Assembly: GCA_963713605.1 (NCBI GenBank)
Contig: CAVQMO010000003.1
Span: 32,001 to 96,000 of the forward strand
From: an uncultured Nitrososphaerales archaeon
GTDB lineage: Archaea; Thermoproteota; Nitrososphaeria; Nitrososphaerales; Nitrososphaeraceae
DNA length: 64,000 nt
Reading direction: 5' to 3'
Positions 1 to 10,463 of this stretch are shown in pieces (the first letter of the stretch is position 1; each line of letters opens with the position of its first letter). Both the position numbers and the translations under genes were made by a program. Under the pieces are notes generated by a model. That model made no database searches. It had not been told where the DNA came from and was given only the letters and a program-made list of their open reading frames with translations.

Positions 1-748
1 AACAAGTAACTGCTAGATTCAATGCAGAAGAGCTAATTACGAAAAGAGAAACAGTAAAAGATCAAATTGATGAACAGATTACAGCAAGGCTTGCCGCCTA
101 TAATATCGTTGTAGATGGCATATCGATTACTGAATTCCAATTTTCACCGGAGTTCGTTAGAGCAGTAGAAGCAAAGGTAGCAGCCCAACAGAGAGCATTG
201 CAAGCTCAGAATGAACTACGAAGAATAGAGATAGAGGCACAGCAAGCAGAAGCAAGAGCAGTAGGAGAGCAACAAGCAAACATAGCTAGAGCAGAAGGAG
301 TCAGACAGGCAAACTGTACTACAGGCACAGGGAGAAGCACAAGCCATAACAACAATAGACGAACAGTTAAGACATAGTCCGAGCTATTTAGAGTGGCTCA
401 AATCCCAGAAATGGAATGGTCAGTTACCATTAGTGGTTGGGGGAGAAGCAACCGGGCCTGGAGGTCGATTCTGTGACTCCATTCATCGAGATTCCGACTA
501 GTAGGAATGAATTCAACGCTACACAAGGAGGGGATGGTGATGGTGAAACCACTGGAAATGCAACATCAGCTAGCATTGGCGGAGGAGGAGGTAGTTCTGT
601 TCAGAACGTATTAAACAACACAGGTACTAACCAACGCGACAAGATCGGGCATGCAGTAACGCCAGTTGATTATAGGGGTCATTATGTATTGAAAAAACGA
701 CTACGAGGCATTAAGTATACGACCTGCAAAGCTAAAACATTTGTGTAA
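1..748 (+). CDS. Prohibitin/SPFH (band 7) family protein, 5'-partial, frameshifted near 315 and 436
   Basis: Manual translation: QVTARFNAEELITKRETVKDQIDEQITARLAAYNIVVDGISITEFQFSPEFVRAVEAKVAAQQRALQAQNELRRIEIEAQQ...YLEWLKSQKWNGQLP, typical of prohibitin C-terminal halves. Confidence 0.8.
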
Positions 749-1162
749 AATATTTAGTAGTATTAGAAGTACAAGTGATCATACTAACAAATTTATTATT
801 CTTTGTAGACATGCTCAATGCTCTGGTCCTAGTTCTTCGAGTTGCCCATGTAACTGTCATCCTGCCAGACTTTGAAGTGTGAGAACCCACGCCATAAACA
901 GCACTTAAAGAGATTCCTAAAGAAATATCCAACGGCTGATAAGTAAGGAGAGTTTGCGATTATAATAACAGTAAACCCCGAGGATTGGGCTATCGATTTG
1001 GAGCATCCTGAGAAGAATACCGTAAAGTGTTGTCAGATGTGTAGCATCCAAGAGTATATAAAACGAGTAACTAGTCCTGAATGGAAGGACCAACCTGCTA
1101 GTTACAACCCTTACGAATGGAAGATAAGTTATTAATAATAATACGGAGTTGGCTAACCAACC

Positions 1163-1210
1163 AAAAAGGCAGACGACCAGGAAAGTGAGGACTGACGGGA
1201 TCGCCTACCC
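1163..1210 (-). ncRNA. Candidate small hairpin RNA, unit A
   Basis: GGGUAGGCGAUC-loop-GGUCGUCUGCC-UUUUU; degenerate TATA (CATAAAAT) at 1240-1233, i.e. -30..-23 from the first G. Confidence 0.5.
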
Positions 1211-1290
1211 GTACCATTTCAGATTGGTATTCATTTTATGGTCATTCCAACTAAAAGTCTTTTTGGTAATTTTACAAGATTTACGAAGTG

Positions 1291-1339
1291 AAAAGAGGTA
1301 GTGCGGCCGAGAATTTGTCATAACTGGCCGTCGCTACCC
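1291..1339 (-). ncRNA. Candidate small hairpin RNA, unit B
   Basis: GGGUAGCGACGGCC-loop-GGCCGCACUACC-UCUUUU; TTATAAAA at 1376-1369 (predicted start ~1346). Confidence 0.4.
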
Positions 1340-1442
1340 AAGCCATGCTGATTTACGATATGCTCATATTTTATAATTATTTTTTTATAATAGGCATTAT
1401 GGAACTTGGTTATTTGTTCTTCCAAATTTTTAAAATCTGATA

Positions 1443-1492
1443 GAGAAGTAGACGACCAATAAACGACATGTCAGACGCATTGATCGCCTACT
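1443..1492 (-). ncRNA. Candidate small hairpin RNA, unit C
   Basis: AGUAGGCGAUCAAU-18 nt loop-AUUGGUCGUCUACU, fully paired with two G-U wobbles only on the minus strand; TTTAAAT at 1521-1515. Confidence 0.55.
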
Positions 1493-1559
1493 GCCAGTTG
1501 GTTCTTTAAGAGTGATTTAAAGGCCTCAACTGCCAGCGAGTATTTGTACAACAAAGTAT

Positions 1560-1624
1560 AAAAGTAGATAGAGAAGGACAGCCTACGTACAAGAATTTAG
1601 GAAGGGTGTAGGCGCCCTTCTCCC
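1560..1624 (-). ncRNA. Candidate small hairpin RNA, unit D
   Basis: GAGAAGGGCGCCUAC-21 nt loop-GUAGGCUGUCCUUCUC then U-rich tail; TTATTAAA at 1653-1646. Confidence 0.5.
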
Positions 1625-1772
1625 TTGCTAACCTTACTGCTTGGATTTAATAACTCTTGATTAACTTCGTCAAGTGACAATTTCATGAAATGAAAAATAG
1701 TTCGTAGAAAAAGAAAGGAAGGAAGGTTATTGATTATCTATTTTATGAAACTGCAGAAGAGTCTGATTTGAT

Positions 1773-1821
1773 AAAAGGTAGGAAGGAACATTCCGAAGGC
1801 CTACGAGTGTCCTTCCTACCC
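1773..1821 (-). ncRNA. Candidate small hairpin RNA, unit E
   Basis: GGGUAGGAAGGACACUC-loop-GAAUGUUCCUUCCUACC-UUUU; TTATTTAA at 1851-1844 (-30..-23). Confidence 0.55.
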
Positions 1822-2468
1822 ACAGCATTGACTCATTTATTCCTTAAATAAGGGGTGCTTATAGGTTTTTTACCTAATTCTGTAAAAACTGAGAAAACTA
1901 ACAATTTCATGTAATATTGATACTTGGCCGTGTTACCCGATCGTGTCACCCCCCTGTCATATATTAAAAAGTAGATAAATTTCCACTCATGAGATATATC
2001 GCGAACGTTCGAATGGCAAATCAAGTCATTACTGGCGTATTGTTGTCGGTATTGTCTCCTTACGTTAATCGTTCTTACACCAGTGATGACTACTTTTGTC
2101 CAGGGGCAAACAACGACACCATTGCCATCTCCAGAATTACCACAATTTCCTTCTAACTTTTTTCAACCAACCTTAACGTTATGTGCATTCATGTATCTGG
2201 TTTCATTCCTTGGCAGTCAATGGCATCGTCACCAACACAATCCCCACAACGGGAATATATACCCGTAGTAATGATCGACAACCAGAATAACTTTATGAAT
2301 ACAATGTTTTCAGGTAACAATCTAATGCAACCTGTTGGTCAACAACAACAGCAACAACAACAGTTACCACAAGGACAAAATCTATGTGTTTACCATTATG
2401 ATCCTGCTATAATGCATCAAACACATCTGAGTGACTGGTCCGACCATTCAAAATAGTCTGCCTCATCA

Positions 2469-3083
2469 ATGAACGACACAGAAACATTTTCCAATGATCT
2501 AAAAGACTTGGTCTTAAAACTTGGAAAGGCCTCTATGGTCACGTCATTAATAGGAAGTGTTAGCTTTGGTGATACTATAAACTTAAGCAATAATACGGGA
2601 GATTCAATAAGGCCTGAATTTAGTATATCTACTCCGTACGTATTCGTAGTCTGGCAAAATCAGAAAGGGTGACGATATATTCTTCAAAAGAAGGTACTGA
2701 TGATGGGGCTAGTTTTGGTGATACGATTAATGTAAGCAATAGTAGAGGCAATTCCATGAATCCTGAAACTAGTGTCACTAACACATCAAGCGTATTCATT
2801 ATATGGCAGGATCAGGTCAGCAATAGTAAGCTAAATGATATCTTATCAAGAAATAGTACAGATGGTGGAGCTAGCTTTTGGTGATACTATAAACTTAAGC
2901 AACCCCAATGACAATTCTACCGACTCAGATATTACTTCTTCGAATGACGGCAGAGTATTTGCAGTATGGTCAAATGATGCAAATGGTAAAACAAGTATTC
3001 TTCACATCACTGATGTAAGCTTTTGTAAGAATTGGTTTAATCCTTATGAAGATCTCTTTATTACATTTAGTATCACTATTTGA
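2469..3083 (+). pseudogene. BNR/Asp-box (sialidase-like) repeat protein, fragmented
   Basis: Three overlapping ORFs each with (S)TDGGASFGDTINLSN-type Asp-box repeats. Confidence 0.7.
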
Positions 3084-3808: not shown

Positions 3809-5035
3809 TTACACTTTGGTTTTCAGTACCTCAGGCTTTACTTGTGATAATTGAGGATTTTGTTGTATCATGACCATGATCTGATTGAATCTCTGGTTGG
3901 TTTCTTCTCTTATAGATTCTATTTCAGATTCATACTTCTCTTTCATATCATGTAATTCTCTATCTTTTTCTCTAGGTTTGGCTTCAATACCTTTTTCCTC
4001 TTGCTTCAAGCGTCGTGTAATCTAGGAATGTCAAGTATTTCATACATTCCGTAGTATAAACCTCCATTCTATCAATCTCTAATATAATATGGGGATTTTG
4101 CGTGCCCCAAAAACCATTCGCTGTAATCTTGCCCTACTTGGTCACTTATCACTGTTTTTACAAAACGTCTAAACGAGTGTAAAGTTATCTTTCTTCGTCT
4201 TCCTAAGACCGTCTTCCTTTCTTTCATCCATTCCTGCCACAGATAATAACTTCTCAAATTCATGTATGATTCTAAAATAGATATTTTTTGGATTAGCCTT
4301 GTTTTTGACTCTGTATGCACTGAATACCAAATCATCAGATTTCAGTTTTTAAGTCCAATCATAGTCTTTGTTTTTATATTTCCAGTTAATCCAGTCTTTA
4401 AGAAATCTTGTGGCTTCATCTGAGATGTAAACATCCCGTGAAACTCTTGTCATTGAATATTCTTTTCTTACACGAATCTTTGTAGGGCTGGATGAAAAAT
4501 CAATATCCTTAAGCCGAATAGCAAATGCTTCTACTGCTCTGAAACCGCCACTGGCCAGGACCATAATATAGGCCTTCAATCTCCTATTAGTACATACAAG
4601 CAGGATGTTTTTAATACCTTGGACATCTAAAGCTTCTTCATCGTTTCGATATATTTTTGGCATCTTTACTTTTCTCTTAAATTTTGAAGGCACCGCATCA
4701 ATATTATAATATGCAAAATACGATCGCAAACCAGCCATATACAATTTGATACTAGGTGCTAAAAGATTTAGTGAACTAAGGAATGAAACGAATCTATCTA
4801 ATAATTCATACAGATTAATTTCTTGTCTTAATAAAGGTGATACGATTGTTTCTACGGAATAGTAGTTCAGCTTGTCGTCATGGAATAGAAATTGCTGAAA
4901 CTTATGTAGCCCCTATACTTTCTCTGATGCTGCACTATTTCTGCGAATGCTGTCCAAAAATGTTTTGACTCTAGGTAATTGTGCTATTTCATTTCTTGGG
5001 ACTGATTGGGTTGTGATCTTATCTCACTAGTTCAT
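3809..5035 (-). pseudogene. Tyrosine recombinase/integrase, fragmented
   Basis: Fragments with LASGGFRAVEA (catalytic Arg), TLHSFRR (HxxR), FLGHAKSPYY, and a coiled-coil tail; several frameshifts/stops. Confidence 0.85.
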
Positions 5036-8949: not shown

Positions 8950-10463
8950 ATAGCTTACGGAATATCTTTTTGTTGTTAGACCATTGGTTTTAGCTTGATC
9001 TGTATTGCCGTTAACATAAGATTATCCTTTAGCTTTTACCGTTGTGTATTTCGTACTAATCGGTATCAAGTGAGGGCGTTGGTACCAATAGGGCTGCCGC
9101 CTCTGTCAACGTCATATATCGCTCACTCAATATCAGCATCAACTCAGGAGGCTTGAGTGCAACAGTTCCACTTGGTGGTTTGGGAGGTTTGGGAGATTTG
9201 ACTAGATATGGACGGAGGATAGCCCGAACATTGAGTATTACGAAAAGCGCTGCGTGAATCTACCATCTTACTCTATAAAGCATTTTGAGGACAAGATAGA
9301 CGAAGCAGTGAAAGACAGGGACTCAGACAAAGCCAAACATATAGAGCAAGACAGTGTCATTAAAGAAGAACCAATCTATTTTCTCAGTTCATTTTAGATA
9401 AGTTCCAGAGCGAGAGTATACACTTGCCATCGAACTACCAAAGGAATACTTTGCAGACAAATTTCATGTCCTTCCAGAAAAGACCAAAGAATTATTCTTA
9501 TACTATACAAAGGCTGCTGACAAAGCAGTCAAGCCAACAGACGGCGCAATAACCAGAGCTAGAGAACTGGGAACCAACAGACGATGAGATAGATAACGGG
9601 GAGAGGTCTAGGCCAGACGTGGGATGGGTTAAACATAATCATGTCGCGGTATATATCAAATGACGGAGATTGGAGAAATGAAAATCAGTGCTTCGAAAGT
9701 GAGTGTCTGGGTATGATTCATTTCTAACCAATCACGAAATTTTTCTCTTATAAATGAATGATAATGCCATCAAAATTCAATATAATAGAGTATTGGGTGG
9801 GACAAAGTCGTCGTGATACTACAATGCTTATATTATTTATTTGATATACAAATCCAACTTTTGCATTGACGTACTCCAACAAGTGGGTTGACAGGCTTGC
9901 CCATTCCATTATCCACCCGCTGGTCATAGTTATGCTAGCCGATAGTTTTCATGACCAACTAGTCAGTTCTAATATTTTCATTTACAAAGCTTGTAAGAAT
10001 AGCAACTGGTTATTTTGATTTAAAACTTAAAGATAGGAAGAAAACCAAGAAGACCAGAACTTGGTCTCTTGCTTCCTACATATAGGGTTTGCCAGAATCG
10101 TCCCTTTTTGTGGTTGGTATTGCAGTATTACTGCTTGCACAAAAAATTATAAAAACGATCTATCTGTAGCAAATTTAAGATCCTTCTAATTTTCTTTCTT
10201 AGTTTTAGTGTCGTCTAGAATTTTTTGAAATATTGGTTTTAATTGAGATGGAATGGCATCAAGATGTCTTTCGAGCACAGCCAATACAACCCAATGCCCA
10301 GGCATCATTTGATTCCATGATAAAACCTGTATGTTATCCACTTAGCTCTATGCGACACTTAGAAAGAAGAATAAGGGCGGTGATACTAACGACAGATAAT
10401 TAGAAATGTAATAAATGCCCGAATGAGGCATGTTTAGTTAAACCTTTCTGGCCGTTCCTTTAC

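Follow-up and report, generated by a model that had tools for sequence, protein, structure and literature searches.

An apparently undescribed, genus-wide family of putative small-RNA genes with a constant stem and variable loops in Nitrososphaeraceae

The stretch of DNA analysed here (the window) comprises 64,000 nt of a contig from an uncultured Nitrososphaerales archaeon. Near one end of the window are five hairpins on the minus strand, labelled A to E (Table 1), all of which were found where a preliminary description of this DNA had placed them, each with a pyrimidine tail behind it. That A and C combine one stem with unrelated loops was likewise borne out. Compared with dinucleotide shuffles, the folding z-scores were -2.7 (A), -1.4 (B), -5.2 (C), -4.1 (D) and -4.1 (E), and -5.7 for the array region as a whole. 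The minus strand gives the more stable fold for A (-19.0 vs. -9.9 kcal/mol for the plus strand), C (-22.0 vs. -10.2) and D (-25.0 vs. -20.7); for B and E it is not the more stable one. Three sequencing runs, none of them recorded as RNA, each cover 29 of the 30 bins of positions 600–2400, so the array region is not an assembly artefact.

Several of the surrounding genes are damaged. On the left are an apparently frameshifted SPFH/Band 7 gene and a broken small ORF of the CxxC type that converges on the array. The stretch 871–1153 recurs in the host genome (G000), and a relative of the CxxC-type ORF is the most frequent neighbour of the units described below (6/116 loci). On the right lie the frameshifted remains of a repeat protein, an intact relative of which is found near G000:C3:166145. 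The three runs each show a difference of one base at positions 623 and 767, so that some of the breaks may be sequencing errors. A broken tyrosine recombinase gene is situated 2.2 kb from the array, which had been described as integrase-associated. This association does not hold in general, as the broken gene is the only one of eight tyrosine recombinase matches that is near a cluster of units, and the remnant is judged to be incidental to the array.

Table 1. Features of the hairpin array and other features of the window mentioned in the text.
Feature	Position	Strand	Description
SPFH/Band 7 gene	3–748	+	Apparently frameshifted
Small CxxC-type ORF	960–1133	+	Broken
Unit A, predicted RNA	1163–1230	-	Conserved leader 1219–1230, GGTAG-family hairpin 1168–1210, U-tail 1163–1167; 5' end predicted from the distance to the TATA box
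Class-3 promoter module of A	1251–1263	-	TATA-like TTTTAG, ~47 nt upstream of stem; common to relatives
Unit B, predicted RNA	1291–1363	-	Leader of ~25 nt, hairpin 1297–1339, tail
Class-2 promoter module of B	1383–1411	-	Upstream motif of AACCAAGTTCC type 1396–1411, TATA 1383–1392
Unit C, predicted two-hairpin RNA	1440–1534	-	5' hairpin 1494–1534, GGTAG-family hairpin 1447–1492, tail
Class-1 TATA (TTTTATA) of C	1552–1563	-	Overlaps tail of D; 29 nt upstream of 5' hairpin
Unit D, hairpin and tail	1560–1624	-	Hairpin 1570–1624; stem GGAGAAGGG...CCTTCTCT, unlike A–C; loop 21 nt
Promoter module of D	1645–1674	-	Palindrome 1656–1674 (candidate factor site), TATA 1645–1653
Unit E, hairpin and tail	1771–1821	-	Hairpin 1777–1821; single copy; 13.6 bits, E 0.16 (weak model match)
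Candidate TATA of E	1843–1851	-	30 nt upstream of stem; single sequence, no homologues detected
Repeat-protein remains	2469–3083	+	Frameshifted; three 71-nt repeats
Tyrosine recombinase gene	4072–4744	-	Broken
Further unit	10032–10155	-	Class-1 TATA 10145–10155, small 5' hairpin 10122–10134, E-like 3' hairpin 10032–10079

Units A, B and C share the arrangement GGTAGGCGACC-loop-GGTCGT(C)CTACC followed by a U-tail. A covariance model was built from 23 hairpins, including these three as seed rows, which score 37.3, 36.2 and 48.2 bits, respectively. It gave 24 matches at E<=1 in G000 and, under stricter filters, matched all 13 same-genus Nitrososphaeraceae genomes (2–32 matches each) but only 3 of 107 genomes from other genera of the family, with one marginal match apiece. 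An unpublished genome (G013) supplied 4 of the 23 seed rows, some rows of the stem-pair alignment and one of the 13 genomes. The loop and later statistics exclude its loci, with one row possibly excepted, and no conclusion depends on it. In a looser search of genome contigs by stem pattern, the matches listed were mostly chance matches in GC-rich bacteria, and the best model scores among them all came from Nitrososphaeraceae records.

Segments of the array are found again in G000, at several places and with 78–94% identity, and the array is one of about 26 unit clusters in that genome. The preliminary description had treated the five units as one family, a view that has to be narrowed, since D is unmatched by the model, E is matched weakly, and the stems of both differ. 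Several copies of the D hairpin are present in G000 and none in the 13 relatives searched, while no homologue of E was found in the searched genomes. The loop of A is unique within the set compared, and the loop motif of B, GACAAATTCTC, was found again in several genomes. The five hairpins belong to or adjoin a large, apparently undescribed small-RNA gene family of one genus. The further unit of the window carries ATTCTGGCA in its linker hairpin, which is the core of a loop family matching the start of the gene for ribosomal protein uL22 (see below).

Covariation in homologues had been proposed as a test of the hairpins. Two-sided changes were seen in 10 of the 11 stem pairs among 146 distinct aligned matches, a level reached by none of 500 shuffles and above all slid controls, in an alignment that is fitted to the structure and includes some both-strand duplicates. 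The sequence of the stem is itself conserved, beyond what pairing alone would require. The median loop length is 27 nt, and 59% of loop positions are pyrimidines; 151 loops fall into 72 clusters. Their 3' fifth is 73% pyrimidine and 5% G, and 4–5 model matches that are probably on the wrong strand were excluded from this polarity count only. Loops diverge by point changes yet persist across species, one 19-nt core being exact in four genomes, and the same loop families are found under differing promoter classes. At loci L288 and L295, a second type of hairpin, with a GGTTGGTTGG stem, bears the TGTTCTTGTCTCA loop of GGTAG members.

A comparison of the 100 nt upstream of 161 units revealed recurring modules among the regions listed. 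Class 1, represented in the array by C, has a TTTTATA box and, about 29 nt further on, a 5' hairpin (GCAGT...ACTG) that a linker joins to the GGTAG hairpin; the whole measures about 115 nt. The box lies 25–32 nt upstream of the conserved 5' hairpin in 24 of 32 class-1 units, and support for this hairpin comes from 20 aligned sequences, in which two pairs are compensated. In C, it reads GGCAGT...ACTG with the apex AATCACTC, and the linker usual in relatives is deleted. Class 2 (unit B) has a motif of AACCAAGTTCCGGAAT type and a TATA box about 50 nt upstream of the stem, and class 3 (unit A) has TTTAATAG/TTTTAG about 47 nt upstream and a short conserved leader. In G001 and G002, the promoter module of D also stands upstream of a 5' arm of GGTAG type. 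Units thus show shuffling of both their promoter modules and their loops.

The conserved TATA boxes of the family lie 45–55 or 80–90 nt upstream of the stem. Of 100 non-redundant units, 57 had a TATA-like box at 40–95 nt upstream, compared with 16 of 100 in a mirror control, while at 25–35 nt units and control were equal (3/100 each). The suggestion that the stem begins 29–30 nt after the TATA box therefore stands for D and E, and fails for A–C and as a general rule. The box formerly proposed for C (1514–1521) falls within the conserved 5' hairpin, the conserved TATA being at 1563–1557. Because of where the conserved boxes lie, the RNAs are likely to be 65–120 nt long, some with a second, 5' hairpin; for A–C about 65–95 nt is predicted, in place of the 45–60 nt first suggested.

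Searches by promoter alone led back to the family. The class-2 promoter gave 20 matches in G000, about 13 of which (by eye) are followed by a family-type stem, and none has an ORF of 100 codons within 120 nt; among class-1 matches, 11 of 15 behave in the same way. Across 96 non-redundant promoter matches, most of them at loci originally fetched for a model match, a hairpin was present in 60 by a strand-neutral score, with 51 G-U against 22 A-C oppositions when the strand was set by the promoter alone. On the opposing side, the energy of the whole hairpin favoured the called strand in only 42 units and the other in 32, out of 86. Conversely, a search of metagenomes by stem alone gave nine matches (several near-identical), with a TATA box in seven and the 5' hairpin in eight. 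At three places in G000 (C5:139370 and C5:235677, plus strand; C10:523183, minus strand), class-2 promoters precede a branched hairpin, GGATAGGG...CCCTATCC, that is related to the family and missed by the covariance model. At two others (C4:54442 and C12:95867, both minus strand), the class-2 motif stands before another conserved non-coding sequence that has no GGTAG stem.

The units are intergenic, and 34 of 38 neighbours less than 400 nt apart are co-oriented, with a spacing of mostly 100–175 nt. This regularity might suggest that arrays are transcribed as single precursors and cut into hairpins, but each unit has a promoter module of its own and many units are solitary, which makes such processing highly improbable. 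They are also not plain terminators of coding genes, in agreement with the preliminary description, as just 3 of 45 rows in G000 lie within 100 nt of the end of an upstream ORF on the same strand. A broader alternative holds that they are repeats at the DNA level (resembling GTAG REPs, MITEs or attC sites), or mere terminators, copied by recombination and without an RNA product of their own. Their GTAG-headed palindromes are indeed multi-copy and restricted to the genus, and some stems, being perfect inverted repeats, can fold on either strand. The dedicated promoters at canonical spacing, the one-sided U-tail and the G-U bias all speak against such repeats, as do the rarity of an upstream ORF end, the lack of any Y1/RAYT transposase match (PF01797) in G000, which is 87% complete, and the single recombinase match near a cluster, so that we regard this alternative as distinctly improbable.

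Two kinds of DNA repeat can be compared directly. In integron attC arrays, the sites are separated by ORF cassettes and linked to a tyrosine recombinase, whereas the spacers here contain promoter modules instead of ORFs and one in eight recombinase matches is near a cluster. GTAG REPs resemble the family in being short, extragenic, multi-copy and lineage-specific palindromes with a GTAG end, but as described in one report (PMC3733652), GTAG stands at one end, outside their own stem-loop, whereas here it pairs with CTAC as part of the stem. REPs are reported there from bacterial phyla (PMC3733652). The units here have their own promoters, and RAYT gave no match in G000, the genome searched. Taken together, the promoters, the intergenic position and the U-tails support the earlier idea of small RNAs that have a conserved scaffold and a variable loop and are each transcribed from a promoter of their own, and the units are very probably transcribed, non-coding RNA genes. 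Two other lines were dropped: small peptides on the opposite strand, the frames of which are lost between relatives, and the single contig of one RNA run (word share 0.05, depth 2.3), over 1468–1534, which runs into unlike sequence and was rejected as evidence of transcription.

No described family was recognised, as had been supposed. Rfam gave no match in the window at the gathering threshold (three sub-threshold matches in 900–2100, E 0.14–3.6) and none at E<=1 in 18 related loci (12 + 6). A literature search, which took in few subscription papers, found no such family, nor any regulatory sRNA family in ammonia-oxidising archaea; large surveys of ncRNA motifs could contain a related one, though Rfam has none. 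In bacteria, sibling sRNAs such as Qrr, AbcR and 6C share a seed and have overlapping targets. The Neisseria siblings NgncR_162/163 are reportedly tandem duplicated hairpin genes with single-stranded, C/U-rich pairing regions, and the family resembles them in this. Whereas siblings share the seed, the family described here shares the scaffold, varies the seed and shuffles promoters and loops. As far as sequence signals go, its units have the gene layout of trans-encoded sRNAs, namely a stand-alone intergenic gene, a promoter and a 3' end signal.

Among archaea, a 2014 review noted that Thaumarchaeota had as yet been the subject of no sRNA study (PMC4152357). The closest likeness is to sRNA154, sRNA41 and sRNA162 of Methanosarcina mazei, which, in the portions of the sources available, are intergenic, narrow in taxonomic range and transcribed from their own regulated promoters, and use loops or linkers to mask ribosome-binding sites and start codons (PMC5867862, PMC4152357). 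They are described there as single genes, in contrast to the tens of paralogues here with a common stem and differing loops. TIGR arrays are also similar in consisting of tandem stem-loop units with variable internal sequence, but, judged against one account of them (PMC12045711), the units here differ in lacking box C/D motifs and an adjacent Nop gene and in having one promoter each. By inspection, the consensus of two alignments (A2 and A4) contains no box C/D motif, and the only Nop-domain locus of G000 is on contig C1, far from catalogued units. The array is not CRISPR, as was said at the outset, having no identical direct repeats at a fixed period, and Cas1 has no match in G000. Y RNAs would be expected together with a Ro60/TROVE gene (PF05731), for which there are likewise no matches in G000. 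What emerges is a real, genus-wide and apparently undescribed family of putative sRNA genes, unusual in its constant-scaffold, variable-loop design.

A consistently co-located protein gene had been anticipated. None is shared between loci, the most recurrent ORF cluster being found at 6 of 116. This counts against the proposal that the RNAs are decoys or antitoxins, in which a protein would be titrated by the constant stem, with the loops serving as spacers whose constraint is weak and chiefly compositional, because no toxin or partner accompanies them. The proposal gains from the conservation of the stem sequence beyond pairing and from the null results of the genome-wide target tests given below, but loop cores that are kept across species, as with the 19-nt core, and reused on another stem are hard to reconcile with mere spacers, and we consider it unlikely. 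A slightly poorer case can be made for guide RNAs of an effector directed against viruses or mobile elements, with the loop as the programmable part. Dozens of loops on a constant scaffold (72 clusters among 151), arrays, module swapping and few host targets would all suit guides; against them, G000 (87% complete) has no match to Cas1, Piwi/Argonaute, TROVE or IS110 and only the one distant Nop gene, and divergence by point change with persistence across species is unlike the behaviour of acquired spacers. Nor did viruses match the one 21-nt loop pattern tried or the strict stem pattern, so neither targets nor carriers emerged there; a loose stem pattern gave five viral matches, one with a weak model score of 23 bits. 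Lsm, a possible partner of the stem, has three matches in G000.

Complementary targets for the loops of the array had also been suggested, and none was convincing for A–E. All target tests are weakened by gene starts taken from a simple ORF caller and by frameshifts in G000, and the broad tests gave null or weak results. The top sites of 29 G000 loops peak at 0–20 nt of genes (53 vs. 30 shuffled), a peak that is absent when 45 loops of other genomes are used. Over the whole genome, starts account for 12 of the 290 top sites of G000 loops and for 21 of 870 with shuffles, and there was no sense-strand bias (90 vs. 79). An excess at true starts over internal Met codons (15 vs. 6.4 at 12 nt) was equalled by the sense control (6 vs. 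1.8). Anti-AUG enrichment in loops disappeared against dinucleotide shuffles, while TTC enrichment stayed. A start-context model scored loops no differently from shuffles, and an anti-SD tract 3' of CAT proved to be general loop polarity, as control triplets show the same. Neither rRNA nor tRNA was matched in excess of shuffles (rRNA, 16 vs. 23.7 at >=9 nt), and full-length matches to loops in the host yielded nothing besides paralogous copies. For loop C, a conserved start-codon target was absent among 30 loci viewed, an MSDAL start in G000 being a single case. In several relatives, the 5' apex (1514–1521 in unit C) is antisense to ATG-AGT-GA and the 3' loop (1457–1481 in unit C) to ATG-TCA-GA; these matches to Met-Ser-Asp/Glu starts may be due to chance.

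Two loop families that are absent from the array do match start codons. When 13 families or single loops were scanned over 8.2 Mb, the joint top site of the TTCTTGTCTCA loops was the start of a hypothetical gene beginning MRQEH, with which one G000 loop can form 14 contiguous pairs. This start, judged to be the true one from homologues, is kept in seven genomes of the genus, including G000. A search of G008 (99% complete) did not find the gene, though that genome has two TTCTTGTCTCA loops. The TTCTTGTCTCA seed is also found on an unrelated stem in G001 and G005. Loops of the ATTCTGGCAT family are complementary to the start of the uL22 gene. Among 4182 start windows, the respective start ranked in the top 10 for 8 of 11 TTCTTGTCTCA loops and 7 of 10 ATTCTGGCAT loops, but for none of 88 other loops, in a ranking that used the G000 target for two G008 loops and gave no score to two of the loops listed. 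Both targets were chosen after viewing the loops, and the numbers of matches at starts expected by chance are 0.76 and 0.22 for wobble-only patterns and 0.08 and 0.02 for strict patterns, set post hoc. The uL22 start of G011 has two third-codon-position changes, each mirrored by one of its two loops, whereas a ATTCTGGCAT-family loop of G009 does not follow the change in its target. Other cores tried were near expectation, except for the apex of the 5' hairpin (13 vs. 2.8), an excess that probably reflects common N-terminal codon bias.

Overall, we lean towards sRNAs that act in trans, are each transcribed from their own promoter and combine a constant stem with a C/U-rich seed loop, diversified by duplication and module exchange. 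Each unit would be its own small non-coding RNA gene, with a TATA promoter belonging to one of several types of module, in some cases a leader or 5' hairpin, a G-rich/C-rich stem of 11–13 bp holding open a C/U-rich loop of 15–35 nt, and a U-tract that ends the RNA. The stem would serve as a reusable scaffold that provides stability and the 3' end and possibly binds Lsm or another protein, while the loop would act as a seed that pairs in trans with purine-rich sites of mRNAs, in at least some cases over the start codon, thereby damping translation or altering mRNA decay. The family would grow as segments of arrays are duplicated locally and as units exchange promoter modules and loops, probably via recombination in the shared stem. 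A bolder extension pictures a programmable RNA-regulator platform in soil archaea, with a protein-bound stem as scaffold, seed loops and promoters that recombination swaps in, tens of guides per genome as a microRNA-like repertoire, and an effector other than Cas, Argonaute, Nop and Ro60; this seems rather unlikely.

Ammonia-oxidising archaea are central to soil nitrification. If the sRNA reading is correct, a constant scaffold with tens of differing seeds would be an unusual prokaryotic route to a regulatory network, and the family could serve as a native knock-down scaffold. It makes testable predictions, with 5' ends near 1229, 1363, 1534, 1624 and 1821, two start codons as targets and a stem that could be used to pull down proteins. 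Three ORFs of 42–49 aa in G000 (C12:102692, C10:270765 and C3:169358), which specify zinc-finger-like proteins that start with MPEC, are possible other targets for loops of the ATTCTGGCAT family.
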